This document shows, one piece after another, positions 28,724 to 47,600 of a DNA stretch of 64,000 bases. The stretch lies in the IMG/VR virus record IMGVR_UViG_3300045988_123611. One strand, 5' to 3'. Numbering within the stretch: the stretch's first letter is position 1; every line of letters starts with the position of its first letter. Source of the DNA: a virus. The notes under the pieces were generated by a model that saw nothing but the letters and a program-made list of their open reading frames with translations, was not told where the DNA came from and searched no databases. A program made the position numbers and the translations under genes.

Positions 28724-28724
28724 A

Positions 28725-32780: not shown

Positions 32781-33218
32781 TCAGTGAGCGAGACGGAAGT
32801 AGGACTTGCGCTTGTCCACAATCTTCTCGACGCCGTTCGCTTCAATCATCTGACGCAGAAGAGCGGAAACGCGCTGGTTGGTGAGGTCGCCCAGACCGTC
32901 CACGTTCTTGATGAGGTCGGTCACGGTGTACAGCTTGTCAGGGTTTGCGGACAGCTCAGCGAAGATAATGTCCTTGTAGCCGTCGTTGGCAATCTGATTC
33001 GCGGTCGGCTTCTTATCTCCCGAGTTCTTACGAGCCAACAGGTCAATCTCGTGATTGATAAACTCAACCATAGCGGGGTCAGCCTGAACCTCGCTCATTT
33101 TGAGCAGAGCCTCGAAACGGTCGCGCTTGGTGAGCTTCTTAACAGTAGAAGTAGACATAGTATCAATTCCTTTCTTTGGCGGTAGGTCGCTACCCTTTTG
33201 ATATATTGAGTATACCAC
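32781..33218 (-). CDS. small protein family member A (145 aa), paralog of 35404-35784. Possible winged-helix.
   Basis: About 70% identity to 35404-35784 across KKLTKRDRFEALLKMSEVQA...NQRVSALLRQMIEAN. Confidence 0.6.
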   Translation of the reverse strand: MVYSIYQKGSDLPPKKGIDTMSTSTVKKLTKRDRFEALLKMSEVQADPAMVEFINHEIDLLARKNSGDKKPTANQIANDGYKDIIFAELSANPDKLYTVTDLIKNVDGLGDLTNQRVSALLRQMIEANGVEKIVDKRKSYFRLAH

Positions 33219-33699
33219 ATTTTAGAGTGCTTGTCAAGAGGTTTCACAAACTTTTCACACGAATTACTACCCCGACCTGACGGATAATTTATTGTTTGTT
33301 GATTCAATCTATTTGTCAGCGGAAAACCGCGTCAAGGATAGTTGGTTCAATCAAACTCACTTTCGCGTTCAACGTTTGGCTTTACAACGTGGTGTATTAT
33401 GTTTTCTTCCTGTACTTTCTCAAGGTCGCGCGCCCTCGGATTTCTTGGGCTACTCCCTCTTGACATTTTCTATTGTAGCACACTCGCTGGGATTTGTCAA
33501 GAGGTTTTCAAGAAAAAACTCATGAATTTTTTCTTTTATCCCGTGCGTTCCGCTCCGAAGAGACCTTAACGTAATAGGTGAACGGTCTATTGCTACTTCC
33601 AACCGTAGCCCCACACCGACCTGTGGCTCAGGGGTTCCCCTCTTGACATTATCTATTATAACAGATTGCCCACGGATTACAATTGACAAAATAACCAAA

Positions 33700-33895
33700 T
33701 TACGGGAAAAAATTTTCTTTACTTTTGTGCAACTTTTCTCTTGACAAAATTGGCGGGGCGTGATATAATGGTGAATTCGGCCCGCTTTGGGCGTTGGCGG
33801 GCCGGCCATTTTATCATAAAAGTTCTTGTTTGTCAATAGACAAAATAGACAAAAAAAACTACCCATTTTTGGGCAGTTTTTTTATTTTAGTCCAG
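33700..33895 (+). ncRNA. Plus-strand mini transcription unit, copy 1: promoter TTGACAAAATTGGCGGGGCGTGATATAAT, GC hairpin, ATTTTATCA, TTGTCAATAGACAA, terminator
   Basis: Elements in the same order and spacing as the other six copies. Confidence 0.5.
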
Positions 33896-34132
33896 CAGGT
33901 TAATCTCACCGGGAATTTTGAAAGAATCAGCGTCCAGTGTGGAATTGTAGTCCTCGGTAAAAAGGTCAATCATTCCACATTCCATGATGTAATTCTGCAC
34001 CGCCCGCTGAACATTTCTCCAAAGGTCAATCTTTCGGCTTTCCTCGCGGGCTTTTCTGGCTTCCTGTATCTGGATAATGAGTTCGTCCAGTTCCTCGTCG
34101 GTCATGTAATTCAAATCTAAATCCATTTTCAA
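33887..34132 (-). CDS. hypothetical protein (81 aa)
   Basis: ORF. Confidence 0.45.
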   Translation of the reverse strand: MKMDLDLNYMTDEELDELIIQIQEARKAREESRKIDLWRNVQRAVQNYIMECGMIDLFTEDYNSTLDADSFKIPGEINLLD

Positions 34133-34416
34133 AACTCCCCTTTAATTGCTTCTTTCCATGCATCCCAGCCGAATTTTTCCTCGCGGTCTAACTTCTTGCC
34201 AATGTCTTTTGCGGTCAGTAGGTCAAGCTCGTCCGCAATCTCATCTTCAAAGTTTACCCAAGAGTCGTAGGTCTGAATAATGAAAACTTCATCGGCTTCA
34301 AAGACGCCACCGCACTCGGCGCAGATAATATAGTCATGGTCGATTAAAATGCCCATGTGAGGGTCATTGTCATCAGGGACTACAAAAAGGACTTGTTTAG
34401 CGTTCATGTGAAACAC
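34129..34416 (-). CDS. hypothetical protein (95 aa)
   Basis: Class-B promoter and AAAGGAAAGGGG-type leader upstream. Confidence 0.5.
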   Translation of the reverse strand: MFHMNAKQVLFVVPDDNDPHMGILIDHDYIICAECGGVFEADEVFIIQTYDSWVNFEDEIADELDLLTAKDIGKKLDREEKFGWDAWKEAIKGEF

Positions 34417-34484
34417 CTCTTTCGTTTGATGTATTGATTATACCATAGGGAATAGGACTTGTCAAGCCCTATTCCCTATTTTTT

Positions 34485-35261
34485 TTAGCTCATGTTTACA
34501 ACGGGATTTTCCTTAATGTTTCGCATGAGCGCGCGCTGAAACTCGGTAGGCTTGGGGCGTTCCGCCGTGGGAGTTTTGAAAAGGGACTTTTCCATGGTCT
34601 TATGCTGTCGGACGCAATAGCGCAGAATCTCAACTTCAATGAGAACATCTTCAAGTCCCGTGTGGGATTCATCAAAGCTGTCCTCACCGCTGATAAAGCG
34701 ATAAAGAATTTCTGCGGTAAAGCGGAGCTGTCCGTTCTTGGTCTTGTAGCCGTTCTTTTCGCAATAGTCGCGGTAAGTGGGCATTTTGCCGATAACCTGT
34801 CGCGCCATTTTCAACGTGTCCCAAATTTCGAGGTCGTAGGGAAAGAAATAGCGATACTTGCTTTTCGTGTCCCATCTTTGCGCGTTGTTGCAGGCGTTAA
34901 GGTCGAACCGCATATTATGAGCACAGACAAAAGAGCAGTTGTAGCGCTCGACACATTCGCAGAACGCCTGACGAATTTCGTAAAGGTCAGCCATAATGCG
35001 CGAACCGTTCTTAATGTCCTCAATGTAGCGAGGAATCTTGTCGGCGTAGTAGGCAGACCGCATGAGGTCGCGTTCGTAGCAGAAAATGTCGCGATTCACA
35101 AAGGAATGAGTTTCATAAACATTTCCCTTGGAATCAATGACCGCCCAGCCGAAGTCGTAGGGAAGCACATTTGACATATCCAGCTTATCGCCATCCTGAA
35201 TGGTGTTTGCGGTTTCCGTGTCCAGCATAATGCCGTAGTTTTTGCGCCTATCAATACCCAT
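34485..35261 (-). CDS. DEDDh 3'-5' exonuclease (DnaQ/RNase T-like)
   Basis: Exo I IMLDTETAN, Exo II AHNMRFD, Exo III HTGLEDV. Confidence 0.75.
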   Translation of the reverse strand: MGIDRRKNYGIMLDTETANTIQDGDKLDMSNVLPYDFGWAVIDSKGNVYETHSFVNRDIFCYERDLMRSAYYADKIPRYIEDIKNGSRIMADLYEIRQAFCECVERYNCSFVCAHNMRFDLNACNNAQRWDTKSKYRYFFPYDLEIWDTLKMARQVIGKMPTYRDYCEKNGYKTKNGQLRFTAEILYRFISGEDSFDESHTGLEDVLIEVEILRYCVRQHKTMEKSLFKTPTAERPKPTEFQRALMRNIKENPVVNMS

Positions 35262-35403
35262 CTTATCGTCTCCTATTGGAAAAGTAGATTGAGGTTTACC
35301 ATCGTTCTCTCAACCTCTGATAATAGTATAGCACTTTGCTATTGGTTTGTCAACAGTTTTTTTTGTAGGGCAGGGGATTTTTTTATCCCCTGCCCTTTTC
35401 CCT

Positions 35404-35784
35404 TTACGCGAGGGAGAAGTAGGACTTGCGCTTGTCAACCGTCTTGACAACGGTGTTGGCCTCAATCATCTGACGCAGAAGAGCGGAAACGCGCTGATTG
35501 GAGTAGTCCGCAAGCTCGGGAACGCCCTTGATGAGGTCGGTCACGGTATACAGCTTGTCAGGGTTTGCGGTCATCTCGTCCAGAATGACCTGCTTCACAG
35601 TGTCATTCTCCATCTGCTTGGCCGTGGGCTTCTTGTCGCCCGCGTTCTTCTTGGCGAGCAGTTCAATCTCATGCTCGATGAACGCCACCATGTCAGGATT
35701 TGCCTGAACCTCGCTCATTTTGAGCAGAGCCTCGAAACGGTCGCGCTTGGTGAGCTTCTTAGTGGTAGAAGTAGAAGTAGCCAT
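35404..35784 (-). CDS. small protein family member B (126 aa), paralog of 32781-33218
   Basis: See 32781-33218. Confidence 0.6.
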   Translation of the reverse strand: MATSTSTTKKLTKRDRFEALLKMSEVQANPDMVAFIEHEIELLAKKNAGDKKPTAKQMENDTVKQVILDEMTANPDKLYTVTDLIKGVPELADYSNQRVSALLRQMIEANTVVKTVDKRKSYFSLA

Positions 35785-36287
35785 AGTATCAATTCCTTTC
35801 TGGTTTTTAAGACTGTCCTTGTCTTTGATGTAGTTATTATACCATAGGCGGAGCAGGTTGTCAATAGTTTTTGCAAATTTTTTTTAGGGGCGGTCGCGAG
35901 GTTTATTACTATACATCTTGTTTATACCTACCTTTATCTATACTCATAAACCAATTCATTTTACTAAACCAAATTAGTCTTTAAGGCGGTGGGCGAGCAT
36001 TAGAAGTCATCTTGTTTTTACCTCTCTCATTTGATGTATTCATTATACCCTACGTAGAACGGTTTGTCAAGGGGTTTTTCAAACTTTTTTTGAAAGTTTG
36101 TTCGGCACGCCACGCTTGGAACATTCCGTCGGATTTTGGTATAATGAATGGTCAAGAGAACTGCCTTTCCGAAGGTCTTACTCTTTCCTCCTGACATTAT
36201 GTAGTATAGCAGATTGGTAATGATTTGTCTATTGGTAAAATAGCTAAATAACGGGAAAAAATAAAATTGAAATTTGTGCGAAATTTC

Positions 36288-36435
36288 TCTTGACAAAAAT
36301 GCTGGCAGGGTGTATAATGGTAAATTCCGGCCGTAGCGCGCGGAAACGGCCGGCCCATTATATCACATTCAAGGAATTTTGTCAATGGTCAAAGTAAACA
36401 AAAAAATCTCCCCATTTTTGGGGAGATTTTCTTTT
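36288..36435 (+). ncRNA. Plus-strand mini transcription unit, copy 2
   Basis: CTTGACAAAAATGCTGGCAGGGTGTATAAT, CCGGCCGTAGCGCGCGGAAACGGCCGG, CCATTATATCACATTCAAGGAATTTTGTCAATGG, terminator ATCTCCCCATTTTTGGGGAGAT. Confidence 0.5.
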
Positions 36436-36691
36436 AGCCAATCACACTGACTTCGGTTCTGACAGGCGTTACCATCTTGTCGCGCGAGAACTCGCGAACC
36501 TGACCCGTTTCAAGATTCACCGCGTAGCAATACTGCGAACCTCTCGACCGGACAAACGGCGTGTTGTTGTTGCTGTCAATTTTGAGATACATTCCCATAC
36601 CGCTACCGTTAGAGCGCAGAGTGGTGAACGTGCCACCGCTGAGAATGTTGATAATTTGGAGCTGACCCTTAGTGCCAAAATTTACTTTCAT
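36434..36691 (-). CDS. hypothetical protein (85 aa)
   Basis: ORF. Confidence 0.45.
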   Translation of the reverse strand: MKVNFGTKGQLQIINILSGGTFTTLRSNGSGMGMYLKIDSNNNTPFVRSRGSQYCYAVNLETGQVREFSRDKMVTPVRTEVSVIG

Positions 36692-36707
36692 TTTTATTTC
36701 TCCTCTC

Positions 36708-36852
36708 TTAAAGCAGATGTTCCTTGACCCATTTTGCGGTCACGGTCGCGCGTTCTTTGGTGATAACAGTTTCATAGATGAAAAGGTCGTCATCAATCTT
36801 TTCAACTACTTTTCCGATGATTCCAACATCAACCCAAAAATAAGGCATCATT
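36708..36852 (-). CDS. hypothetical protein (~47 aa, start MMPYFWVDV)
   Basis: AAAGGGGTGATAAAA-ATG. Confidence 0.35.
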
Positions 36853-36856
36853 TTTA

Positions 36857-37063
36857 TCACCCCTTTGAACCGACCGAGAAGATGGACTGCAAAAGCACGA
36901 GAATAATCCAAATTGCGAGTGCCAGCTTCCACGAGAACACGATGACGAAAGTGCCGATTGCGGTAATACCGAGGGCGGGAAGAAGCCAACAGAGAAGCCA
37001 AACCAGACCAGAGGTAGCAAGGAACGAAAATGCGAGAGACAGCAGAATCAAAAGAACAAACAT
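36857..37063 (-). CDS. two-TM membrane protein (~68 aa)
   Basis: AAAGGGGAAAATAAA-ATG before MFVLLILL. Confidence 0.45.
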   Translation of the reverse strand: MFVLLILLSLAFSFLATSGLVWLLCWLLPALGITAIGTFVIVFSWKLALAIWIILVLLQSIFSVGSKG

Positions 37064-37117
37064 TTTATTTTCCCCTTTCATTTGATACATTTATTATACC
37101 ATTGGAGTAGGGTTTTG

Positions 37118-37618
37118 TCAAGCCCTTTTCTCCAAAAGTTCCGAAAGTTTTTCGATAATGTTTACTGCGGTTGGGTCAATGGTTTCACCCAAGTGCCAAC
37201 CATTCCGAACCTTTTCATTATCGTCAACCAAGATGGACACGTCATAGCGGTCGCGCACGCTGTCGGCCTTAGTCGCGCCATATTGGACGCCGTGGAAGTG
37301 GTCATAGTGGAAGCCCTGTTCTTCAAGCCACGCGCGCTTTGCTTCACGCACGAGGTTTTTGTATTCCTCGCTCGAATCTTTGGAAAGCCAAGTGATGATG
37401 TTGATTTCCCAGCCCTCGGCGCGGAGAAGTTCGCAAACCTCATTCAATTCAGCCATATCACACATGGGAACGGCAGTCCGATAGGGCTTAGGATTTTCCG
37501 AACGGAGAAGTGCAAGCCAATCCTTGACGCCGTAGAGGTCAGCAATAGTGCCGTCCATGTCAAAGTTGATGGAGCGTCGAGTGGCCACAACGTGGGACTT
37601 GATGTAAGTGATTTTCAT
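37118..37618 (-). CDS. HAD-superfamily phosphatase (deoxyribonucleotidase-like)
   Basis: Motif I FDMDGTIADL (DxDGT). Motif IV ILVDDN. Confidence 0.7.
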   Translation of the reverse strand: MKITYIKSHVVATRRSINFDMDGTIADLYGVKDWLALLRSENPKPYRTAVPMCDMAELNEVCELLRAEGWEINIITWLSKDSSEEYKNLVREAKRAWLEEQGFHYDHFHGVQYGATKADSVRDRYDVSILVDDNEKVRNGWHLGETIDPTAVNIIEKLSELLEKRA

Positions 37619-37734
37619 AGGTATTTACCCCTTTCCTTTACTGTATCCATAGTATAGCAGATTATTACATTCTTGTCTATTGGTAAAATACCCAAATTCG
37701 GGAAAATAATTAGTTGGACTTTTGGCTAAATTTC

Positions 37735-37887
37735 CTATTGACAAATTGCTGAGATGGTGGTATAATGGAAATTCCGGCCGTGGCATGCGCAAACGGCCGG
37801 CCATTTTATCACACTATTGGATTTTTGTCAATAGGCAAAATAAATAAAATTTTGAGACGAGATTTGGTTATCTCGTCTCAAAATATT
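37735..37887 (+). ncRNA. Plus-strand mini transcription unit, copy 3
   Basis: ATTGACAAATTGCTGAGATGGTGGTATAAT, CCGGCCGTGGCATGCGCAAACGGCCGG, CCATTTTATCACAC, TTGTCAATAGGCAAAATA, terminator TTGAGACGAGAT...ATCTCGTCTCAA. Confidence 0.5.
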
Positions 37888-37888
37888 T

Positions 37889-38341
37889 TTAATGTTCGGA
37901 CACAATGCTGAGGTAGCGGACAATCATGTCCATTTCGCAACCCATGTCCTGCTGGTCGCAAACCGCATAACCCACAAGGTCGCCGTCCGCACAAATCGGG
38001 TAAACGCCATAAGTGTTATTGAAAACAAACGGCTTTCTTTTAAAATCCCACTGGGTCGAAACATAAGGCGGAAAGTTTTCCATACCCCGCAGTTTCACGG
38101 TAGTATCATAGATTGCGATGGGACGCAAACCGGAATTTGATGCCATTGTAATAGCGGTTCGCAGAGCTTCTTCGGTCAAAGAGCCAAGCACCAAATACCT
38201 CTTGAAGCAAACGCAGTCGTTGTCTTCAATGAAGATTTCGAGCGGGTCTCCCTCGCGAATCTTCAAAGTCCGGCGAATCTCTTTCGGGATAACCACACGT
38301 CCAAGGTCATCAATTCTGCGAACAATACCAGTAGCTTTCAT
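37889..38341 (-). CDS. AbrB/SpoVT-family transcriptional regulator (swapped-hairpin N-domain + C-terminal domain)
   Basis: N-terminus GIVRRIDDLGRVVIPKEIRRTLKIREGDPLEIF matches the AbrB/MazE/SpoVT DNA-binding fold. 150 aa, as in SpoVT-like proteins. Confidence 0.7.
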   Translation of the reverse strand: MKATGIVRRIDDLGRVVIPKEIRRTLKIREGDPLEIFIEDNDCVCFKRYLVLGSLTEEALRTAITMASNSGLRPIAIYDTTVKLRGMENFPPYVSTQWDFKRKPFVFNNTYGVYPICADGDLVGYAVCDQQDMGCEMDMIVRYLSIVSEH

Positions 38342-38405
38342 TTTAATTTTCCCCTTTCACTTGATACATTAAGTATAGCAGAATAAAAGGCTTTTGTCAA
38401 GCCCT

Positions 38406-38948
38406 TTATTCAAGATTTTTCCAAAAATAACCGTAAGCGCTCTTTCTTCGTCCTTTTATTACCGCGCTGATATTTGAACTGGCGCTGTCTGATAAATTGA
38501 GAAAATGAATGGCATCACGGACACTATCAAATTCTTTAATTGTTTCATGAGTGGTTTTATTACATATCGCAACTTTTACACAATAACCATTCTTCTTTCG
38601 TGTTTCAACAGATTTTAGAATTCTGTTATCATAATGATTATTCTCTTTATACGTGCACCATTCTAAATTTGAAACATTATTATTTAATTTATTACAATCC
38701 AAATGATTAACACAAGGTAAATTATTTGGATTTGGTATAAAAGTTAAAGCTATTAAACGATGAACTCGACAAGCTTTTTGCTAATTATTTTTACATAAAT
38801 TAACATAATAATATTTTTTCCCTTCTGGACCTCTTAGTTGCAAAGAAAGAAATTTCTTATGTTTCATACTCCAAATCTATCCGTCAGAAGTGGCTTGATA
38901 CCAACCTTCATAACCTGGCACATCTCTAAAAATTCTATTCACTTAGTT
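38406..38948 (-). CDS. HNH homing endonuclease with AP2-like C-terminal domain, two in-frame TAG, GTG start
   Basis: VPGYEGWYQATSDG(tag)IWS (NUMOD4-like). HRLIALTFIPNPNNLPCVNHLDCNKLNNNVSNLEWCTYKEN (HNH). ETIKEFDSVRDA...YGYFWK (AP2-like). Confidence 0.65.
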
Positions 38949-39009
38949 CACCCTTTTTTATTTTATTATACTCTAAAATTTTGATAAAGTCAAGTGGATA
39001 GAGTTTATC

Positions 39010-39483
39010 TTATGTTAGTTTATTTTCAGAAGCGAACATTTTTCCATGATATTTTTTACATAGCTCAGTAATAAAAGCAGTATCTTCTCTTTTATCGCAA
39101 TAGCAATCTAAAACATAATATTTCCCTAAATCATAATAAGTGCAAGGAATTTTTGTTTTTTCAATTTCTTCATGAAACCAAAGAAAATTTTCATGGGGTA
39201 CAGTTGTTTTTACAAGCCATAGCTTGTCTTTGCGGGCTTTCTCTTCAATCCACTTGACAAAGTAGACGCCCACAAAATTACAAACGGCAGTAATAGCCAT
39301 TTTCAACCATATAGGCATACCGTCTGCGGAAGTCAGCACAATCACATAGGAATAAAAACCATAAGTGATAGCATTGATAAGAGACGCGCTAACTTTTCCG
39401 CCGTTGACAGTCAAAATGCTTTTGATAGTTGACAGAATCACATTCACCGCCGTGCAAAGCGCGAACAGAAGAATTGTATTCAT
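39010..39483 (-). CDS. membrane protein (N-terminal TM helices + C-terminal domain)
   Basis: AAGGAAAGGGTGATAATA-ATG before MNTILLF. Confidence 0.5.
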   Translation of the reverse strand: MNTILLFALCTAVNVILSTIKSILTVNGGKVSASLINAITYGFYSYVIVLTSADGMPIWLKMAITAVCNFVGVYFVKWIEEKARKDKLWLVKTTVPHENFLWFHEEIEKTKIPCTYYDLGKYYVLDCYCDKREDTAFITELCKKYHGKMFASENKLT

Positions 39484-39562
39484 TATTATCACCCTTTCCT
39501 TTTTCTATTATAATAATATCATATTATAATAGAAATGTCAATAGAGAGTTTTTAATTTACTC

Positions 39563-39722
39563 TTTTAATTTTTCTAATAGATCATCAGCACATTCATAAC
39601 TGATACTTCTGCGGTTGCACTCGTTGGACAAAGGACAACAAGCGCAGTCATTAAAGGTTTCCGTCCAAGCGCGCAACCAGTCAGTCAAACGCAAAGTGTT
39701 AACTTCCTCATACATTGTTATC
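39563..39722 (-). CDS. small Cys-containing protein (~52 aa)
   Basis: Manual translation MITMYEEVNTLRLTDWLRAWTETFNDCACCPLSNECN. Confidence 0.35.
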
Positions 39723-40055
39723 ATTCTCCTTCACTCGGACAAAAAAGACCTTGTTATAGATTTTATTTGCTTTAAGGTCAATCCAAAAATACACGTTTCC
39801 GCATACTCGATAGATTTTACAAGTTTCTCCGCTAACCTTTTTGACTTCTTCAAATTTCTCAGGCGTTGTGGGGTGGAAAACCGTCAGTTTGAGAAATATG
39901 CAATAGAAAGACAAAGGAACGAAGCCGATAATCAGAGCAATCCATGCGAGAACGTCAGTTAAAGTGTTTTCCCATTCGCACCACTCATCGGTGATTGTAG
40001 CGAACGCAATACCCACGCAAAACGCGAGAATCAACCAATACCATGCGACCATCAT
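39708..40055 (-). CDS. membrane protein (115 aa)
   Basis: TM helices. Confidence 0.5.
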   Translation of the reverse strand: MMVAWYWLILAFCVGIAFATITDEWCEWENTLTDVLAWIALIIGFVPLSFYCIFLKLTVFHPTTPEKFEEVKKVSGETCKIYRVCGNVYFWIDLKANKIYNKVFFVRVKENDNNV

Positions 40056-40154
40056 TTTAGTCCCCCTTTATTTGTTGTATACATCTTACCACATTATAGG
40101 ATTTTTGTCTATTGGCATTTTACACAAAAATTCGTGTGAAAATTTGTTGGACTT

Positions 40155-40282
40155 ACATCTTGACAAAAAACTCGGCGCGCCACAATCGTGCACGCGCCGC
40201 CAATTTTATCACATTCAAGGAACTTTGTCAATAGTGAAATTAAACAAAAAAAATCACCCAAATTGGGTGATTTTTTATTTAG
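40155..40282 (+). ncRNA. Plus-strand mini transcription unit, copy 4
   Basis: CTTGACAAAAAACTCGGCGCGCCACAATCG, GCGCGCCGCC hairpin, AATTTTATCACATTCAAGGAACTTTGTCAATAG, terminator ATCACCCAAATTGGGTGAT. Confidence 0.45.
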
Positions 40283-40287
40283 TTTTT

Positions 40288-40470
40288 TTACGCTTCAAGG
40301 TCTTCGAGAATGGGGACGAGCTTATCTTCAAGAAGCTCGATGCGCTTAATCATTTCATTCCCCGTAGTATTTTTTGAAGAATACTTTTCCTGAACGCCAT
40401 GTCGTGCCATCAGGCACACAGCCTTGACAGTCTCACTAAGTTTCTTATTCTTCATTTTTCTTATCTCCAT
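40288..40470 (-). CDS. hypothetical protein (60 aa)
   Basis: ORF. Confidence 0.4.
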   Translation of the reverse strand: MEIRKMKNKKLSETVKAVCLMARHGVQEKYSSKNTTGNEMIKRIELLEDKLVPILEDLEA

Positions 40471-40565
40471 TTAATTTATTTTTTGGAAAGGGTGTCGGTT
40501 GTTTCAGGCACAACCGCCAAAGCCATTAGAAAGGGGAGAAAAACACGAACAAAAGTTCGGTTTTG

Positions 40566-40814
40566 TCAAGGAATAATCAGTTCCGCGTCATAGACAGGCC
40601 GAACCATGCAGGGCGCGCCAAAGCAGTCGAGATTGTAAGTGTCCAAATTGAGAGCGTTCCATTCTTCTGCGCCGGTATTTTCATCAACCACTGACGCGGT
40701 TTTGATGTAATAGACGTTTCCGGAAGCGGGGTCTTGAAAAATCATACCCTCGGGGAGGTCTTCAAATGCAACCATTTTGTTGCTATGCTTAACAGTAATT
40801 TTCATTTTATTCAC
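40566..40814 (-). CDS. hypothetical protein (82 aa)
   Basis: ORF. Confidence 0.45.
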   Translation of the reverse strand: MNKMKITVKHSNKMVAFEDLPEGMIFQDPASGNVYYIKTASVVDENTGAEEWNALNLDTYNLDCFGAPCMVRPVYDAELIIP

Positions 40815-41166
40815 TCCTTGTTATAACGTTCATAAGCCCGTTCGATAACTTCATGACTCGTGGTAGACCATTCTTTTTTGGGGCTGTCAAACTTGTCCGT
40901 GTATTTTTTGATATAATCGTTGTATTCCATACGCGCGGTATCGTATGCTCCAATAGCCACAAGCAAGGACTGTTTTGCCTTTTCAGCATCGGAAACGGCT
41001 TTCTTGCGGTCAGCACCATCGGGGTAAAGGTTAATCACTCCTACGCGCGTAATGACTTGCCTTGTCTTTTTGTCCATGTAATCGATCTTCTCCCAAAGTT
41101 CATAGGTCATTTCCTCAACGCGCATTTCATATGGGTTAAAAGATTTCTTTTTCTTACCGAACATTT
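40811..41166 (-). CDS. hypothetical protein (~118 aa)
   Basis: AAAAGGAGAAAAAGAAAA-ATG before MFGKKKKSF. Confidence 0.45.
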
Positions 41167-41492
41167 TTCTTTTTCTCCTTTTCCTGTTTATTCCACATTC
41201 TATCAAAGAACGCATTTGCGAGGACACGCTTGTAAAGGTTGTCAGGCATGGGGCGCTCGCCATGCTTGTTTCTCCATATCGCGGTGATTTTATCAATATC
41301 CGCGATATAGGCTGTAATGAGTGTGCCGTCCTTGGCACTACGAATAAGTAGAATACCGGTCGTAGTGATAGTGTAGAGAACATCGTCCTCAACGCTGTCG
41401 ATATATGGTTCGCCGATTCCTACATTATCATAGATGAAGAGCAGGCGGTCAATGCGGTCTTGCGTGGCGTGTTTTGACATTTTGATAAGCAT
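41154..41492 (-). CDS. hypothetical protein (112 aa)
   Basis: AAGAGGAAAAAAAGAGGTAAATAAA-ATG. Confidence 0.5.
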   Translation of the reverse strand: MLIKMSKHATQDRIDRLLFIYDNVGIGEPYIDSVEDDVLYTITTTGILLIRSAKDGTLITAYIADIDKITAIWRNKHGERPMPDNLYKRVLANAFFDRMWNKQEKEKKKNVR

Positions 41493-41567
41493 TTTATTTA
41501 CCTCTTTTTTTCCTCTTGGATTGATTATATTGTATCACAGGAAAGGGCTTTTGTCAAGCCCTTTTTA

Positions 41568-41774
41568 TCAGAAATAATAATTTCTGATGATTGCATCGAA
41601 CTTGGGGGCATATACGTTTTTCCACTGCTCTTCCAGAGTTTTGTCATTCGTGCGATATAATTCCCACGAGACTGCGCCATAAGCATTATGCTTGAAAAGC
41701 TCGGCATCACTGGGCATCTGCTCAGCATAGAGAAGCTGGGTCTTGACAAAAGAGTGAATATTGTAGTTAGTCAT
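41568..41774 (-). CDS. hypothetical protein (~68 aa, start MTNYNIH)
   Basis: GGAAAGATGAGGTAAATAAA-ATG. Confidence 0.4.
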   Translation of the reverse strand: MTNYNIHSFVKTQLLYAEQMPSDAELFKHNAYGAVSWELYRTNDKTLEEQWKNVYAPKFDAIIRNYYF

Positions 41775-41894
41775 TTTATTTACCTCATCTTTCCGTTCCC
41801 CTTGGAACAATTATAGTATAGCAAATGCTTAGGCATTTGTCTATTGACGGATCGCACAAAATCGGGAAAAATAATTTGTGCAAATTTTCGCAAC

Positions 41895-42050
41895 TTTTTG
41901 CTTGACAAATTGCTGGCCCTGTGATATAATGGAAATTCCGGGCGCGTGGGCCGTGCGCGCCCGGCCGAACAGTCATTGTTAAAATTTTAACAAAAATGAA
42001 ATAGAAAGGGCGCGGTAATTATCAGCTACCGCGCAAACCATAGTATGAAA
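41895..42050 (+). ncRNA. Plus-strand mini transcription unit, copy 5
   Basis: CTTGACAAATTGCTGGCCCTGTGATATAAT, CCGGGCGCGTGGGCCGTGCGCGCCCGG hairpin, terminator GCGCGGTAATTATCAGCTACCGCGC. Confidence 0.45.
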
Positions 42051-42178
42051 AATTTGTTTACTACTTCAAGAGGCTTACCATTTCCTCTTGACATGATTAT
42101 AATACCACAATGGGGCGAGTTTGTCAATAGTTTTTTGAAAAAAAATTTCAGGCGAGATAATTAAATCTCGCCTGAAAA

Positions 42179-42385
42179 TTACACGTCCCACATGGCTTCC
42201 GCAATCCAGAAGTAGTCATAGCGGAGTTTTGACTGAATCGCAAACAAGGCGTCCGCGATTTCTTTGCCGTCTCTGCGATCTTCCGTATCTGAAAATTTCT
42301 GGCTTTCTTTCGCAATTCTTTGAGCCAACTTTTCAAGGGCGTCTGCCTGTTCTCTCAAAGCCTGCGGGATAGGTTTTTCATTCAT
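42179..42385 (-). CDS. hypothetical protein (~68 aa)
   Basis: AAAGGGGGAAACAAATA-ATG. Confidence 0.45.
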   Translation of the reverse strand: MNEKPIPQALREQADALEKLAQRIAKESQKFSDTEDRRDGKEIADALFAIQSKLRYDYFWIAEAMWDV

Positions 42386-42734
42386 TATTTGTTTCCCCCT
42401 TTGCAAAGTTAGAGGTTAGCTCTAACGTATGTCCGCATTCATCGCAATACCAATAGTAATAAACTGTTCCATACCGGCCATGAGAAGCATTTACAAATTT
42501 CATTTCATTTCCGCAGATGGAGCAATAGCCGTCACTCCATGCTTTTTTATCGGCGTTGTGGTCTGCAACTACTGCACCCGTCATACCATAGCCAAGGGCG
42601 CATGAAATGAGAAGACCAACCAACAGTCTGACTATTGGGTGAGACTTGTCCATGTTGCACCAACAGACAAGGCAGACAAACAGCGCAAGGATTGCGCTAA
42701 AAATTCCGCCAACAATTAAGAATTCCGTTCCCAT
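42378..42734 (-). CDS. membrane protein with C-terminal zinc ribbon (~118 aa)
   Basis: TM segment then CSICGN...CDECGH. Confidence 0.5.
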   Translation of the reverse strand: MGTEFLIVGGIFSAILALFVCLVCWCNMDKSHPIVRLLVGLLISCALGYGMTGAVVADHNADKKAWSDGYCSICGNEMKFVNASHGRYGTVYYYWYCDECGHTLELTSNFAKGETNNE

Positions 42735-42807
42735 TTTTATTTCCCCTTTCCGCATTTAATGCATTGAGCGTGCGTTCAGCACTTTCCATCGCAATAAGGA
42801 CATTTCA

Positions 42808-42921
42808 TTTTAATTCCCCTTTCTCAAACTCTCTTCAATTTCTTCCCATTCGCTTCTGAACAATTCAATGTTCGTATTGCAGATACACTCTAAAATAGCT
42901 TTAATCTGTTCCTCAGTAAAT
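42808..42921 (-). CDS. 37-aa hypothetical peptide
   Basis: GGAAAGGGGAATAAAAAA-ATG start. Manual translation. Confidence 0.3.
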
Positions 42922-43003
42922 TTCATTTTTTTATTCCCCTTTCCTTTGATACATTAAGTATAGCAAAAAAAGGGCTTTTTGTCAAGCCCTTTTTCTTATT
43001 TTT

Positions 43004-43360
43004 TTATTCTTTTTCTCGAATGGAATAATAAACCTTACTCCCTCGCGGCCTGCGTTTGAGTTTATGGTCGAGGTATAACTGCATACAATACCAAGTGAAT
43101 TTGCCGTTGGCATACTCATAGCCATACTTTTTGAATGCCATAAACTGCATTTCAGTCGGCGTGATAGGTCTGCCCGCCTCGTTCAGCAGTTCAAAGACGA
43201 GTTTAATCATCTGCTGATTTTTCCATTCGCGTTCCTCGCGGTCGGCTTTTAAGTCTCTTTCATATTTGTCGCAAGCGTGTTCTGCGATACTCAGATCAAT
43301 GGGCGAGAGAGTGCCCGACGCGATAGCCTTTTTCAAAACTTCATAGATATCCTTGTTCAT
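43004..43360 (-). CDS. hypothetical protein (118 aa)
   Basis: ORF. Confidence 0.5.
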   Translation of the reverse strand: MNKDIYEVLKKAIASGTLSPIDLSIAEHACDKYERDLKADREEREWKNQQMIKLVFELLNEAGRPITPTEMQFMAFKKYGYEYANGKFTWYCMQLYLDHKLKRRPRGSKVYYSIREKE

Positions 43361-43460
43361 TGTAGTTTCCCCTTTCCTTTATTGTGCTTTTATTATAGCA
43401 TCTGTTTTTGGATTTGTCAAGGGCTTTTTGGAAAAAGAGGGAAAAATTTTCCTTCTTTAT

Positions 43461-43733
43461 TTATCCCCAATAAATCGAAAGAACGTTGTCAATGTAGCTG
43501 GCTTTATAACCATAATTCTGCATGATATCTTTGCAAGCCTGCCTGACCTTCTTGTCATTTATTGAAGCAAGAGAACACTCGTAAAGTGTTTCTCCCGTTC
43601 CTGACACTCGCTCAATTTCTGGCATGATGTGGTCTTCGATGAACGCACGCGCGAGAGCATTGTTTTTAGCTTGGATTTCTTTGCGGACTTCTTCGGCTTT
43701 GCGCGTCATTTCATAAGCATATTTAATTTCCAT
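43461..43733 (-). CDS. hypothetical protein (90 aa)
   Basis: ORF. Confidence 0.5.
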   Translation of the reverse strand: MEIKYAYEMTRKAEEVRKEIQAKNNALARAFIEDHIMPEIERVSGTGETLYECSLASINDKKVRQACKDIMQNYGYKASYIDNVLSIYWG

Positions 43734-43812
43734 GGTGTTTCTCCCTTTCCTTTATTGTATTTTTATTGTAGCATATAGGGCTTGTTTTGTCAAGCCCTAT
43801 ATGCAATTTTTT

Positions 43813-44121
43813 TTAGCAGTAAGCCAGATTCCCGCGTGCCCAGCCATATACGCTGATTTGATTGCACGCCTTGCCAATTTCAAGCGCCTGCTTCTTGGTC
43901 TGCACCCTCTTGGACTTGTCAACATAATAGATGCCGTTCGCAAGCCATACACCGCAGTTTCCGCCATATTCCTTAACCGCGTTGATAGCTTCGCGGGCGG
44001 TCTTACATTCAACGCCGTTGGTAGCGACCTGCCAGCCGGACTTGTAGTTGACTTTCTTGCCATATTTGAGGGTCATGCCGTCGTTTTCAGTGAGCTTGCG
44101 AATAGAACGAATGTTAATCAT
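43813..44121 (-). CDS. hypothetical protein (~102 aa, start MINIRSIRKL)
   Basis: AAACCGGAAAGGGATAACAAC-ATG. Confidence 0.45.
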   Translation of the reverse strand: MINIRSIRKLTENDGMTLKYGKKVNYKSGWQVATNGVECKTAREAINAVKEYGGNCGVWLANGIYYVDKSKRVQTKKQALEIGKACNQISVYGWARGNLAYC

Positions 44122-44244
44122 GTTGTTATCCCTTTCCGGTTTGGTAGGTTTTCCTTCCCTTACTGTGATTATAGTATAGCACCGATTCGGGATTTTGTCT
44201 ATTGACATTATGCACAAAGATTTGCCCCAAAAATTTGTGCAATC

Positions 44245-44375
44245 CGCCTATTGACAAAAACTCGGCGCGCCAGGTCCGATCGCGCGCCGCCCAATTATAC
44301 CACAAAGTTTTGAAATTGTCAATAGGCAAAATATACAAAAAAATCTCCCCATTTTTGGGGAGATTTTCATTTTAT
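44245..44375 (+). ncRNA. Plus-strand mini transcription unit, copy 6
   Basis: ATTGACAAAAACTCGGCGCGCCAGGTCCGATCGCGCGCCGCC, CAATTATACCACAAAG, TTGTCAATAGGCAAAATA, terminator ATCTCCCCATTTTTGGGGAGAT. Confidence 0.45.
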
Positions 44376-44378
44376 TTT

Positions 44379-44618
44379 TTAACCATCAACATAAATGATA
44401 AGAACATCATCTTTGGCTTTCAAACCGCTGACCGGCAGTCCCAGCACCCATTCTTCGCTTGCGCCCAAAGCATCGCCGTTCAGAGTCATGCGACCTTTGC
44501 GGTCTTTGAGATAGCGACCGCAAGTGTTTTCATTTATCACTTCAACGCCGTTCCCCTCATAGAACATCAGCGCGCCTTTTACCAGACCAATCACATTTTT
44601 AACCATGCCCAAAGTCAT
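44379..44618 (-). CDS. hypothetical protein (79 aa)
   Basis: GAAAGAGGTTAACAAAA-ATG. Confidence 0.45.
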   Translation of the reverse strand: MTLGMVKNVIGLVKGALMFYEGNGVEVINENTCGRYLKDRKGRMTLNGDALGASEEWVLGLPVSGLKAKDDVLIIYVDG

Positions 44619-44747
44619 TTTTGTTAACCTCTTTCATCTTTAATGTCGTTCCCTTGGAACAATTATAGTATAGCATGAAGTATAGTAAAAATCAATAGGC
44701 AAAATAGATAAAAACTCGGCAGGATTTTGTGTATCCTGCCGAGTTTC

Positions 44748-44942
44748 TTATTCCTCCCAGCTCTCAATGACTTCGCCGGTCATTGCATCGATGATGTCCA
44801 CCGAGAGGACGTTATCCGCGTCCATGAACTTCTGCCCGAGGGCATAGGCATTTTCCTGTCCCGCGACAGACACTTCATAGCGGTAATGCCCCATGTCGCC
44901 CGCCTTATAATTGTAGTAGTTGACAGAAACGATAAATAACAT
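44748..44942 (-). CDS. hypothetical protein (64 aa)
   Basis: AAAGGAAAGGGGATAAAAAAA-ATG. Confidence 0.45.
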   Translation of the reverse strand: MLFIVSVNYYNYKAGDMGHYRYEVSVAGQENAYALGQKFMDADNVLSVDIIDAMTGEVIESWEE

Positions 44943-45047
44943 TTTTTTTATCCCCTTTCCTTTTATACTCTTATTATACCACAGATTCGAGATTTGTCAA
45001 TAGTTTTTTGAAAAAAATTTGAAAAAAAAATAAGGGCGTTTCCGCCC

Positions 45048-45302
45048 TTATTCTTCATAAACGATGATATTGTTGCCTTGCTTTTCAACGCGGGAATCTT
45101 CGCAAAAGTGATAAGTGAATTCCACAGAGAGATGTTTGAGAAATTCGCGTCTCCATTCGCGGGGCTTCGGCTCTAATTCAAAGAGAATGTAAAGCGTTTC
45201 CTCTAACCGGTCAAGGAAGTTTTCAGTATCCGCAACGTTGAATTTGCCCGCAAGCTTCGGTTCAAGAGAAGCGCCAATAGTGAGAATGTTGTAAGTAGTC
45301 AT
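45048..45302 (-). CDS. hypothetical protein (84 aa)
   Basis: ORF. Confidence 0.45.
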   Translation of the reverse strand: MTTYNILTIGASLEPKLAGKFNVADTENFLDRLEETLYILFELEPKPREWRREFLKHLSVEFTYHFCEDSRVEKQGNNIIVYEE

Positions 45303-45404
45303 GGTTTTTACCCCCTTCCTTTATTGTATCTACATTATACCATCTGCTTTTGGATTTGTCAAGTGTTTTTTATAAAAAAATAAGGGCTTTTTCAGCCCTT
45401 ATTC

Positions 45405-45566
45405 TTAGTACTTGACCCACGTGTTGGCTAACTTCCGCTCAATGGTCGCGGGCTTCGTCAAAGTCTTCGCATACGCTTGTGCTTCTTTCTTAGTCTTGAA
45501 GTAGGTCGGCAGGTAGTAGCCAAGGCGAGCGCTGTAATTATCTTCGGTGTAAACTCTGTATTTCAT
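45405..45566 (-). CDS. hypothetical protein (~53 aa)
   Basis: AAAGGAAAGGGGAAAACAAAAG-ATG. Confidence 0.35.
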   Translation of the reverse strand: MKYRVYTEDNYSARLGYYLPTYFKTKKEAQAYAKTLTKPATIERKLANTWVKY

Positions 45567-45654
45567 CTTTTGTTTTCCCCTTTCCTTTACTATAATTATA
45601 ATACCACAGACCGCGGAGAATGTCAAGAGTTTTTTATAAAAAAAGAGAAGTTTT

Positions 45655-45774
45655 TCAACTTCTCTTTCTGCGATGAATCGCTCTCTTTACGCGGTGCTCC
45701 ACGTATTCGATGAGCGCACCCGCGCCGATAACACCAACATAGATAGCGAGAAGAACAAGACCGTCATGAGTAGA
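45655..45774 (-). CDS. 39-aa single-TM peptide
   Basis: AAAGAAAGAGGTAAATCAA-ATG before MSTHDGLVLLAIYVGVIGAG. Confidence 0.3.
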   Translation of the reverse strand, partial: STHDGLVLLAIYVGVIGAGALIEYVEHRVKRAIHRRKRS

Positions 45775-45856
45775 CATTTGATTTACCTCTTTCTTTCTTT
45801 TGATGTATTCATTATACCAAACAAAGGGGCTTTTGTCAAGCCCCTTTTTTATTTTT

Positions 45857-46075
45857 TTACAGTTCTTTTCCAACCTTAACAAATACGATTTTCTCCGGTA
45901 AGACTTCGATGCCCTTAATGCCCGCTTCATTGACTTCCTTGTTCGTGCAAGTCCACCCAAACTCATCTAATGCGTCCCATTCATCGTTCCCGCTGGGAGT
46001 CCAAGTGTTGAATCCATCATCAATCATCACGTCATAGCCCTTGCTGTAAGTCTCCATAATCTGTTCGATAGTCAT
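45857..46075 (-). CDS. hypothetical protein (~72 aa)
   Basis: AAAGGAAAGGGGAATACAACAA-ATG. Confidence 0.45.
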   Translation of the reverse strand: MTIEQIMETYSKGYDVMIDDGFNTWTPSGNDEWDALDEFGWTCTNKEVNEAGIKGIEVLPEKIVFVKVGKEL

Positions 46076-46258
46076 TTGTTGTATTCCCCTTTCCTTTGAT
46101 GATACTATTATAGCATTTCGGGATAGGAATGTCAAGTGGTTTTTGGCAAAAAATGGAAAAAATTTTGCTTTAACGCTTTACTGTGGTAAAGTTCGGGCTG
46201 GGACGCCCTACACGCGCACTACGGCGCAAGAGAAAGAGCGGGAAGCCCGCTCCCGCCC

Positions 46259-46468
46259 TTAATACATTTCGCTATTGGGTTTAACTGTGAAATACTCGAC
46301 ATTCCGCAAGTCGAGCTTGCCATAGGATTTGTCATTATACATTGTAGCACCTGTCGCGAGTAAGTCATTCATCTTACCTGCAATCTCCATAGCGCGCTGT
46401 TCCTCGAACGCCTGCTGGAAGAGATAGCCCTGACCGCCCTTAGTGTAATAAACAATGCCGTAAATCAT
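46259..46468 (-). CDS. hypothetical protein (69 aa)
   Basis: AAAGGAAAGGGGAATGAAAA-ATG. Confidence 0.45.
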   Translation of the reverse strand: MIYGIVYYTKGGQGYLFQQAFEEQRAMEIAGKMNDLLATGATMYNDKSYGKLDLRNVEYFTVKPNSEMY

Positions 46469-46599
46469 TTTTCATTCCCCTTTCCTTTTGTGATTATAGA
46501 ATACCACACTCTAACTGATTTGTCAAGACCTTTTTGAGAAAAAATCTTTGTTAATTTTTTAACAATCTACGCCGTTGGAAAGAGAGCATTACTGCTCCC

Positions 46600-46890
46600 T
46601 TATTCTGCGTAAAGACTTATCAATTCATTTATCTTTTCAATGGCTTCATCAATGTCATCGAGGTAGTTGTCTGCTAACATACTTGCATGGCTGGCTTCCT
46701 CATAATCATCATACGCGTCGCTGAGTTCCTGTGTGCCAAACTTGTCTGCCTGTTCGAGTGCATCTACCTCGTGCCATGCCCTCGACATCTCACCACGCTT
46801 AACCTGACAGTCGCGGAACGCCTGCTTGCTTTCGTTCATTAAACGTTCCTTTTCTGCTTTGAGAGCCTTGTAAAAATCCTGATTAGTCAT
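46600..46890 (-). CDS. hypothetical protein (~96 aa)
   Basis: AATAAGAAAGGGGAATACTCAA-ATG. Confidence 0.45.
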   Translation of the reverse strand: MTNQDFYKALKAEKERLMNESKQAFRDCQVKRGEMSRAWHEVDALEQADKFGTQELSDAYDDYEEASHASMLADNYLDDIDEAIEKINELISLYAE

Positions 46891-47018
46891 TTGAGTATTC
46901 CCCTTTCTTATTGTATCTACATTGTAGCACATTACCGCGCATTTGTCAAGACCTTTTTACTCTTCTCTGCTTGTTAATTTTTTAACAATCTTCGCCGATC
47001 CGCAAGAAAGAGAGAGAC

Positions 47019-47381
47019 TTAATAAGCCTCTCTCCATACCTTAATGATTGTATCATCTTCCACAGTATCAGTGTCATTGTCGTTAATCCACAAGAGCAAG
47101 AAGTCGTTGTCATCAATGTTGAGTGCTTCTACGTTCCACAGGTTGTCCTGCTCATCAATGAGCGTCAGGGTATCGTCTTCGCGTGCGTAGACCTCTGCGC
47201 CGACGAAACGAATGCTTCCGCGCTCCGTACCTGCACCGCACCAATTCTCAATGACCGAGAGGTCGTAGGACTGGGGTGCTTCCTCACAGGCTTCCGCCGT
47301 TGTGTGGTCGTGGAATCCGAAGAAAGACACGGAAAGAATGATGGCAATGGCCATGGTGATGATTTTGGAAACGTTCTTCAT
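47019..47381 (-). CDS. secreted acidic protein with signal peptide (120 aa)
   Basis: N-terminus MKNVSKIITMAIAIILSVSFFG. Confidence 0.5.
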   Translation of the reverse strand: MKNVSKIITMAIAIILSVSFFGFHDHTTAEACEEAPQSYDLSVIENWCGAGTERGSIRFVGAEVYAREDDTLTLIDEQDNLWNVEALNIDDNDFLLLWINDNDTDTVEDDTIIKVWREAY

Positions 47382-47429
47382 TTTGATTTACCTCTTTCTT
47401 TTTGATGATACAAGTATAGCACATGACTA

Positions 47430-47600
47430 CTGGATTGTCAATAGTCATTTTGCACAAATGTGATGGCGTAGTTTCGGGTATTTTGACTATTGTGCATTAT
47501 GACGAAGTTTCGGCGAGAAATTTGTGCAAACTACTGATTTTTATAAAACTCGGCTCGCCACTACCGCCAGCGAGCCGAGCAACGTTTACCGGGGTGTTTG
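47430..47600 (+). ncRNA. Degenerate seventh copy of the plus-strand unit. Has TTGTCAATAG and three TTTGTGCA boxes but lacks the TTGACA-N17-TATAAT promoter and the CCGGCCG-type GC hairpin.
   Basis: Hairpin CTCGGCTCGCCACTACCGCCAGCGAGCCGAG. Confidence 0.3.

Follow-up and report, generated by a model that had tools for sequence, protein, structure and literature searches.

The stretch of DNA considered here (64,000 nucleotides of the IMG/VR virus record IMGVR_UViG_3300045988_123611, henceforth the window) is phage DNA, where an intergenic module of about 200 bp recurs between the genes of what we take to be an early region. This region, from approximately 31.5 to 48 kb, stands out by its guanine-plus-cytosine (GC) content, 42-46% against 27-40% in its flanks, and is occupied by small minus-strand genes coding for products of 38-258 aa, nearly all of them without a match in Pfam or PHROG (a survey of 30 proteins in these two resources gave hardly any informative match). 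The recurrence is far above chance, the copies being recovered by the direct-repeat families D7, D8, D15, D17, D18 and D20. Together with a promoter scan, these families establish the reality of the repeated module between minus-strand genes that had been proposed in a first reading of this DNA, made without database searches (the sequence-only reading).

Along the gene strand, a module begins with a predicted terminator acting in both directions, followed by an optional minus-strand promoter beside the hairpin that we name P1, a GC-rich hairpin (stem of 8-10 bp), an antisense promoter on the plus strand that we name Pas (in four copies), an inter-promoter region, the promoter of the downstream gene, named P2, then a ribosome-binding site and the gene itself. 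Promoters are dense in this region, with 94 sigma-70-like sites between 31 and 48.5 kb against 34.6 +/- 6 in shuffled sequence, and a looser pattern search gives 33 matches on the minus strand, nearly all of the form TTGACA-N17-TGnTATAAT and most of them T-rich upstream. Full-consensus promoters on the plus strand are only four (33741, 36290, 37738 and 41902), every one within a module. The seven plus-strand units with a TTGACA-N17-TATAAT promoter announced by the sequence-only reading come down to these four: the copies at 40155 and 44245 have a -35 hexamer and no -10, and the copy at 47430 has neither. It is likewise in these four copies, not in the rest, that the plus-strand promoter stands back-to-back with that of the left-hand gene and heads a short non-coding unit firing toward the bidirectional terminator. 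The GC hairpin is found as described in all seven listed copies, to which a partial one, with P1 and hairpin at 31624-31682, has to be added. Each of the six copies between 33.7 and 44.3 kb has the bidirectional hairpin and T-run terminator on its right, about 180 bp past the hairpin in the copy at 41.9 kb, but we located none for the copy at 47430.

Other parts of the module change identity on closer inspection. What had been taken for a conserved C(C)ATTTTATCACA tract and a palindrome TTGTCAATAGGCAAAATA (the CATTTTATCACA tract with the second palindrome) proves to be P1 (TTGACA-N17-TGnTAtAAT) in reverse complement, and the first palindrome, TTGTCTATTGG, holds the -35 box (TAGACA) of P2, the minus-strand promoter of the left-hand gene. 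An operator palindrome overlapping both divergent -35 boxes, as had been supposed, is not supported: its two copies overlap the -35 boxes of P2 and of P1, never that of Pas, and their left half-site is weakly symmetric. The TTTGTGCAA box is present, but as part of an upstream element, TTTGTGCA-N9-(CTA)TTGACA, common to P1, Pas and P2. The inter-promoter region keeps TTTTCCCG-N-AATTTG and two inverted TTTGTGCA boxes, and both the TTTGTGCAA box and CGGGAAAAAAT belong to these shared upstream and inter-promoter elements. Resemblances of the inter-promoter motifs to a CodY box (about 9/15 positions) and to a Rex box (from which sequence and spacing differ), both noticed by eye, were dropped.

The module is widespread in related phages. 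An exact 17-mer from P1 is found in at least 119 IMG/VR stretches, dozens of which carry the whole module with different hairpin sequences. We compared two samples, one made of 66 IMG/VR loci found by motif, together with the window, the other anchored on a family of 125-aa winged-helix paralogs (34-57% identity), which removes the bias of a motif search. In the first, there are 127 unique promoter-adjacent GC hairpins, of which 42 have P1 and Pas on either side, 48 have P1 alone (often in the T-run form) and 37 have Pas alone. In the protein-anchored loci, a hairpin lies within 14 nt downstream of 57 of the 87 consensus promoters of the antisense strand, against 31 of 568 promoters of the gene strand, and the promoters coupled to a hairpin are, in these distant phages, oriented against the genes. 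The conserved core of the module is therefore the antisense promoter with its hairpin, P1 being an optional insertion between terminator and hairpin.

This hairpin has stems of 7-12 bp, almost all G-C, in 95 distinct sequences where some 96-97% of the pairs are Watson-Crick. In 33 aligned copies, double-sided changes affect 6 of the 8 pairs, and paired cells amount to 98.9%, a figure inflated by a filter that allowed at most one mismatch, as opposed to 77.5% after shuffling and at most 50% with a slid partner; the compensatory changes are not affected by the filter. In related loci, a promoter scoring at least 10/12 ends no more than 12 nt from the hairpin on one side in 63% of cases and on both sides in 30%, while random positions give 3% and 0.17%. 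The stem is demonstrably kept under structural selection and tied to promoter start sites. G-U and A-C mismatches are equally rare (12 and 11), favouring neither strand. Loop sequences show no conservation among distant relatives; a CG that is nearly invariant at loop positions 4-5 in close relatives, considered as a possible loop motif, is lost in distant ones and was read as shared ancestry. Hairpin promoters of the N4 type and priming signals were set aside as well, the hairpin being always tied to sigma-70-type -10 boxes.

The geometry of the promoters is no less constrained. Between -10 box and stem, Pas has 7-8 nt (GGAAATT or a variant of it), whereas P1 has 2-4 nt. With transcription usually starting about 7 nt past the -10, the Pas RNA would begin at the foot of the stem, 0-2 nt off, and the P1 RNA inside its 5' arm. 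The -10 hexamers of P1 and Pas are 36-39 bp apart in all 50 of 50 unique face-to-face modules (38, 38 and 36 bp in the window), and as an open complex protects DNA to about +20, two polymerases presumably could not occupy P1 and Pas together. A second distance, between the -35 hexamers of Pas and P2, is 58-59 bp in 77 of 106 modules and clusters less often around 47, 68 or 79 bp, so that helical phase is kept; in the window it is 58 bp in each of the four copies with Pas, and 48 and 49 bp in the copies without a Pas -10. The -35 box of P2 is itself non-consensus (TAGACA, TTGTAA or TTGCAA) in 71 of 77 modules, while other early promoters have TTGACA. In the copies at 40.1 and 44.2 kb, GAGTTTTT(T)G directly follows the hairpin on the gene strand, and such a U-run is found only in these two copies, the ones devoid of a Pas -10.

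What would Pas produce? A canonical terminator is found within 160 nt in 58 of 137 Pas units (6% at random positions), and the RNAs predicted for the units that have one are 106 nt long at the median. For three Pas RNAs of the window that end at the bidirectional terminator, fold z-scores range from -4.3 to -7.4, with a predicted fold made of the 5' GC hairpin, a weak stem derived from the -35 palindrome, and the terminator. In an alignment of 21 diverse Pas RNAs, RNAalifold recovered the 5' hairpin alone; the 3' hairpins fail to align because each is part of the gene upstream, which varies, and the conserved linker is none other than P1 in reverse. At its gathering threshold, Rfam 15 detected only tRNAs in the whole window, and at an E-value threshold it gave terminator-like matches between 31 and 48.5 kb, the best at 24-34 bits against thresholds of 50-114. 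The Pas RNA is therefore not a homologous multi-helix RNA family. The two-hairpin RNA family imagined in the sequence-only reading has to be abandoned, its 3' hairpin being a non-homologous terminator and its linker a promoter in reverse; of the analyses that had been suggested to check it, covariance upholds the hairpin stem and recovers no multi-helix structure across copies, and the Rfam search yields no family at threshold.

The modules also matter for the way genes are exchanged. Against close relatives (85-97% identity), 24 of 35 clusters of alignment breakpoints are intergenic, in a region where intergenic DNA makes up 34.6% of the length (p = 4e-5). A relative (L100) is without a one-gene cassette that direct repeats of (T/A)TCAATAGGCAAAATA flank in the window (Table 1), and in another (L034) the TCAATAGGCAAAATA motif of the module at 37.8 kb is directly followed by an additional, inserted cassette. 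On this comparison, the modules evidently act as recombination junctions between related phages. A miniature inverted-repeat transposable element (MITE), or any such transposable mini-element, was rejected: the similarity of the copies, 70-78%, is confined to functional parts of the promoters, the inverted repeats are promoter boxes, and the junction repeat is the TCAATAGGCAAAATA motif itself.

In the same region, an AT-rich insertion of about 800 bp (38420-39217), just downstream of a promoter at 38372-38400, is missing from all 8-9 close relatives. It contains a 77-nt stretch 87% identical to the HNH homing endonuclease gene of Cellulophaga phage phi19:1, and, with reading frames that seem disrupted, is probably what is left of a homing-endonuclease gene in decay.

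As for the phage itself, no close nucleotide match of the window exists among GenBank phages, where searches with 15 kb, 20 kb and one 251-bp module matched nothing but a 77-nt HNH fragment. The nearest proteins belong to phAss-1 (50% identity), a gut phage that recodes TAG (PMC10607447), and to Enterococcus phages of 134-142 kb. The modules are absent from the first 50 kb of phAss-1, which has 6 loose promoter matches (TTGA[CT]A as -35, degenerate -10). In the plus-strand late region (48000-64000), reading TAG as sense fuses short open reading frames into frames of 243-580 aa with 2-11 in-frame TAGs each; in the early region, by contrast, there are almost none. This pattern of the late frames fits the TAG-recoded 'code 15' clade of phAss-1. 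Twelve tRNA genes lie on the minus strand at 318-4245, none of them with a CTA anticodon. At 4175-4245, adjoining tRNA-Trp, ARAGORN calls a tRNA-like gene whose anticodon loop is abnormal, being called with two bases, '(tt)'; this gene is not listed by the Rfam tRNA model at gathering score. A P1 pattern with 25 specified bases matches 31 contigs of metagenome-assembled genomes, mostly labelled gut Clostridia or Eubacteriales, and these labels suggest that group as hosts, weakly, because phage contigs are often mis-binned. The best explanation for the source is an uncultured, TAG-recoding, siphovirus-like phage of gut Clostridia, with the modules lying between its early-gene cassettes.

A comparable arrangement is known in T4-type phages, where PeSL cassettes join consensus early promoters to GC-rich stem-loops, flank orphan genes and promote the shuffling of modules (PMC2839356; PMC4122927). 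We give about an even chance to the view that the modules are boundary cassettes of this kind, in which Pas shields P2 and the sequence serves as a recombination handle. It builds on the parts and their conservation, the selection on the stem, its tie to start sites, the two fixed distances, the weak -35 of P2 and the junction role. Pas, a consensus promoter of maximal strength, would fire backwards to make a non-coding RNA of about 105 nt, with the hairpin first and the bidirectional terminator last. A polymerase bound at Pas, or firing from it, would block P1-initiated and read-through transcription short of P2, and the expression of each cassette would be set by its own P2. The hairpin would probably stabilise the 5' end of the Pas RNA, and in copies without a Pas -10 it would be a plain hairpin and U-run terminator just past P1. 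Over evolution, the conserved 200 bp or so would provide a patch of homology for the swapping of gene cassettes, as PeSL elements do in T4-type phages. Among the options put forward in the sequence-only reading, transcriptional interference is the one that fits best.

To be sure, several points weigh against this view. We infer interference and insulation from geometry alone. The main weakness is that a strong P1 is kept directly facing Pas in a third of the modules, an odd feature that shielding leaves unexplained. With a canonical terminator in only 58 of 137 units, the Pas transcript may in many relatives run antisense into the upstream gene. The phasing and the weak -35 of P2 fit at least equally well a regulator acting between Pas and P2, or a coupling by supercoiling. 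Finally, with G-U and A-C mismatches equally rare, the stem gives no clue as to whether the RNA of either strand or the DNA itself is selected, and its percentage of pairing carries the bias of the hairpin filter.

It is possible, and we advance it tentatively, that Pas and its hairpin make up a dedicated device, hitherto undescribed, of a large clade of gut-Clostridia phages, a dead-end promoter phased to P2 that would work as an insulator or switch in cis at each boundary, or as a source of hairpin-capped decoy RNAs of about 100 nt, and might be read out by the winged-helix family. A related view, which we find somewhat doubtful and which is compatible with shielding by Pas, is that a phage protein of the winged-helix or AbrB-like kind would bind the boxes lying between and across P1, Pas and P2 and would switch all three jointly, for example in shutting off early genes. 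The three promoters do have TTTGTGCA-N9-(CTA)TTGACA in common, the inverted boxes stand at helically phased spacings of 48, 58 or 68 bp, the antisense TTGACA box is retained where the Pas -10 is lost, and the -35 of P2 is suboptimal. Candidate proteins for this role are at hand, as the sequence-only reading had surmised. The two winged-helix paralogs of the window, 125-126 aa long, belong to a family of 3305 metagenomic homologues with no Pfam family, and are modelled (predicted local distance difference test, pLDDT, of 82) with a helical N-terminal part and a winged helix in the C-terminal 65 residues or so, which matches the MarR, ArsR and Fur families at E values of about 3e-3; the gene at 37889-38341 codes for an AbrB/MazE-type domain. 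Furthermore, the winged-helix gene is the most widely shared neighbour of the modules, also in distant phages. However, the 'palindrome' is mostly a -35 hexamer whose left half is just T-T-N-N-C, the boxes occupy the position of the UP element recognised by the alpha subunit of the polymerase and may simply add promoter strength, and the fold matches are weak and generic. A search of PDB sequences with the winged-helix alignment gave no match. It is co-occurrence alone that ties the winged-helix and AbrB-like proteins to the boxes, and they are candidate regulators. Binding to Z-DNA was considered and rejected, the Z-alpha match reflecting the generic winged-helix fold.

Could the Pas RNA be the effector? 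It would then belong to abundant small RNAs acting in trans, stabilised at both ends, serving either to decoy an RNase or RNA-binding protein of the host or as antisense to read-through or P1 leader RNAs. We think this unlikely. A maximal promoter with a conserved hairpin exactly at its start site, even where P1 is missing, speaks in its favour, and so does the classic build of a stable RNA, a 5' stem-loop and a 3' terminator, with the predicted length of about 106 nt and the low fold z-scores of the three terminator-ended units. But 95 stem sequences with unconserved loops leave it without a common recognition sequence or seed, the sole conserved single-stranded stretch is P1 reversed, absent from Pas-only modules, a clear terminator is present in less than half of the units, and Rfam has no match.

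Less probable still is the proposal that a dead-end Pas boosts its divergent neighbour by driving negative supercoils into the 130 bp that separate their start sites, which would make it easier to open the weaker P2 on linear DNA that has just been injected and is still relaxed. This would account for the fixed and phased spacing of Pas and P2, for a P2 -35 systematically weaker than that of other early promoters, and for the short, terminator-bounded Pas unit of this lineage, but it leaves the conserved 5' hairpin and P1 without a role, the copies at 40.1 and 44.2 kb keep the same weak P2 with no Pas -10, and it is purely theoretical here. At the far end, the put-like RNA entertained in the sequence-only reading, or a nut-like one, making polymerase resistant to terminators so that Pas transcripts cross a terminator-rich early region toward the late genes at 48-64 kb, is very improbable: Pas does have the orientation of these genes and a moderately conserved spacer, but its transcript is directed away from the adjacent genes and has one hairpin where put has two, with variable loops and stems lacking sequence conservation, it meets directly after the unit a strong bidirectional terminator that in this lineage was apparently selected to stop it, and some copies have lost the Pas -10.

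How much of this is new? In the passages of Arbiol et al. (2010; PMC2839356) and Comeau et al. (2014; PMC4122927) that deal with them, PeSL elements are, as here, repeated intergenic composites of some 100-200 bp associating a sigma-70 early promoter, AT-rich upstream, with a GC-rich stem-loop or terminator; they flank small genes without assigned function in a variable region, and the breakpoints of indels and replacements between related phages fall inside them. They differ in phage lineage and host phylum and have no sequence homology with the present modules, which are analogues, not homologues; and Pas on its hairpin, the face-to-face P1 and the phased divergent pair were not met in those passages (PMC2839356; PMC4122927). 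The design of PeSL is nearly reproduced in another feature of the window, five compact junctions (38389-38403, 41540-41565, 42967-42994, 43771-43804 and 45823-45847) with a TTGACA -35 in the loop of the upstream terminator hairpin, e.g. AAAGGGCTTGACAAAAGCCCTTT, whereby terminator and next promoter overlap.

Among Firmicute phages, the Bacillus phage SPO1 offers another parallel. Its host-takeover module, a subject associated with Stewart et al. in 1998, is said to contain many small early genes in short operons that each combine a terminator with a very strong promoter of the host type; as far as tested, the proteins have no relation to the present ones, and neither antisense promoter-hairpin units nor a phased divergent pair are, to our knowledge, reported for this phage. 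In the face-to-face switches of phage P2 (Pe/Pc), coliphage 186 (pR/pL) and IS10 (pIN/pOUT), convergent promoters tens of bp apart have overlapping 5' ends, resulting in interference or antisense pairing. The spacing of 36-39 bp between the -10 boxes of P1 and Pas is in the range of phage P2 and IS10; however, each of those systems is a single switch, of development or of transposition, and its overlap contains a repressor gene or ribosome-binding site, whereas here the overlap is only a variable hairpin, the pair occurs several times in a genome, and the target gene has a further promoter of its own. Antisense control of the type of IS10 RNA-OUT or P22 sar, with convergent promoters and overlapping 5' ends as in all 50 P1/Pas modules, was rejected: the overlap comprises the hairpin only, the start codon lies about 150-180 nt further on, past P2, and the ribosome-binding site is not covered. 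In Bacillus, stem-loops near the 5' end (aprE leader, ermC, SP82 early RNA) block 5'-end-dependent decay, and the predicted start of Pas, 0-2 nt from the stem, is reminiscent of them, but they protect mRNAs while the Pas RNA is non-coding and antisense. Type I toxin-antitoxin pairs (par/fst of pAD1, txpA/RatA) are convergent RNAs that share a bidirectional terminator; here too a small RNA is directed at the 3' end of a small gene and ends in a shared terminator. This candidate was rejected as well, the upstream genes (55-150 aa) being diverse and mostly hydrophilic, not small hydrophobic toxins, and the overlap being the terminator only.

Literature searches for designs with an antisense promoter and a bidirectional terminator in phage early regions gave nothing matching beyond PeSL. 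Promoter-terminator cassettes are a known type; relative to the literature searched, in which neither was found, the unit of antisense promoter and hairpin and its phased coupling to P2 are new. They provide a testable picture of how early genes stay both organised and independent in a large group of uncultured, TAG-recoding phages of the human gut, and extend the PeSL idea, in which regulatory cassettes also serve as handles for recombination, to Firmicute phages, beyond the T4-type phages that infect Gram-negative hosts. With its fixed geometry of 36-39 bp and 58 bp, the unit made of Pas, hairpin and P2 is a compact example of interference or coupling, usable in reporters or as an insulator part. 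The conserved promoter box, for its part, is a practical marker for these phages and their early regions in metagenomes.

Table 1. Modules m0 to m7 and associated features of the window.
Feature	Position	Strand	Details
m0, partial module	31624-31732	-	bidirectional terminator 31703-31732, P1 31654-31682, hairpin 31624-31650; no intact Pas
m1 P2	33655-33682	-	TTGTAA-N16-TGTTATAAT; promoter for left-hand unit
m1 inter-promoter elements	33703-33732	+	CGGGAAAAAAT 33703-33713; TTTGTGCAA upstream box of Pas 33724-33732
m1 Pas	33741-33769	+	TTGACA-N17-TGATATAAT, 12/12
m1 GC hairpin	33778-33804		starts 8 nt past Pas -10, 3 nt past P1 -10
m1 P1	33808-33836	-	TTGACA-N17-TGATAAAAT; faces Pas, -10 boxes 38 bp apart
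m1 bidirectional terminator	33851-33883		ends gene 33887-34132 and predicted Pas RNA
m2 P2	36203-36231	-	TAGACA-N17-TGCTATACT
m2 Pas	36290-36318	+	12/12; upstream box 36273-36281, CGGGAAAAAAT 36252-36262
m2 GC hairpin	36327-36353		
m2 P1	36357-36385	-	12/12, extended -10
m2 bidirectional terminator	36400-36435		
m3 P2	37651-37679	-	TAGACA-N17-TGCTATACT; for gene 37118-37618
m3 Pas	37738-37766	+	12/12, extended -10
m3 GC hairpin	37774-37800		
m3 P1	37803-37831	-	-10 boxes of P1 and Pas 36 bp apart
m3 bidirectional terminator	37849-37884		ends AbrB-like gene 37889-38341
m4, no Pas -10	40083-40276	-	P2 40083-40111; inverted boxes 40119-40142; P1 40203-40231; terminator 40248-40276
m4 plus-strand -35 hexamer only	40160-40165	+	hairpin 40173-40199, then GAGTTTTTTG on minus strand
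m5 P2	41815-41843	-	for gene 41568-41774
m5 Pas and hairpin	41902-41930, 41938-41964	+	no P1 beside hairpin
m5 next minus-strand promoter	42099-42127	-	terminator 42146-42177, about 180 bp past hairpin
m6, no Pas -10	44173-44368	-	P2 44173-44201; inverted TGCACAAA/TTTGTGCA boxes 44210-44242; P1 44294-44322; terminator 44339-44368
m6 plus-strand -35 only	44251-44256	+	hairpin 44263-44289, then GAGTTTTTG on minus strand
m7, degenerate	47413-47579	-	minus-strand promoter 47413-47441; inverted boxes 47449-47459, 47521-47529; hairpin 47549-47579; no Pas or P1
One-gene cassette	44343-44692	-	gene 44379-44618; flanked by direct repeat (T/A)TCAATAGGCAAAATA
Winged-helix paralog 1	32781-33158	-	candidate DNA-binding protein, co-occurs with modules
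Winged-helix paralog 2	35404-35784	-	AlphaFold2 pLDDT 82; C-terminal winged helix-turn-helix matches MarR, ArsR and Fur family domains

Some further elements of the window and its relatives deserve mention. The motif AATGTCA(A/G)GAGG, the reverse complement of the CTCTTGACA box, is found 5-6 nt past the -10 of four minus-strand promoters (33640-33650, 33455-33466, 36188-36198 and 42082-42092), in units that end at terminators about 85-140 nt downstream. The ATG, at or next to the transcript start, would give predicted leaderless peptides of some 18-60 aa beginning with MSRG or MSGG. Structured RNA leaders were considered for these units and rejected, with fold z-scores of about 0 in the two tested. 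One unit, at 33480-33638, is absent from a relative (L106).

The lower-GC left part of the window has promoter cassettes of its own. Between 2214 and 30800, a second, AT-rich family of 15-18 copies (families D1-D4), the reverse complement of TTGACA...TATAAT with flanking A/T runs, serves the minus-strand genes, and none has an antisense promoter. Iteron-like tandem repeats are present at 27912-28029, 28724-28795 and 47755-47851, one set having a 22-nt unit, TGGTCAAAAATTTCTATAT, where GC skew turns positive (26-30 kb), and the other a unit of 31-38 nt at the point where the early (minus) and late (plus) regions diverge; they may be replication origins or arrays of regulator binding sites. Lastly, an apparently unrelated viral contig of 46 kb (L042, IMGVR_UViG_3300037067_007425) displays at about 9480-9540, upstream of a gene, a perfect inverted repeat, TTGTCAATAGGCAA...TTGCCTATTGACAA, the 14-mer of which may be used as an operator elsewhere.

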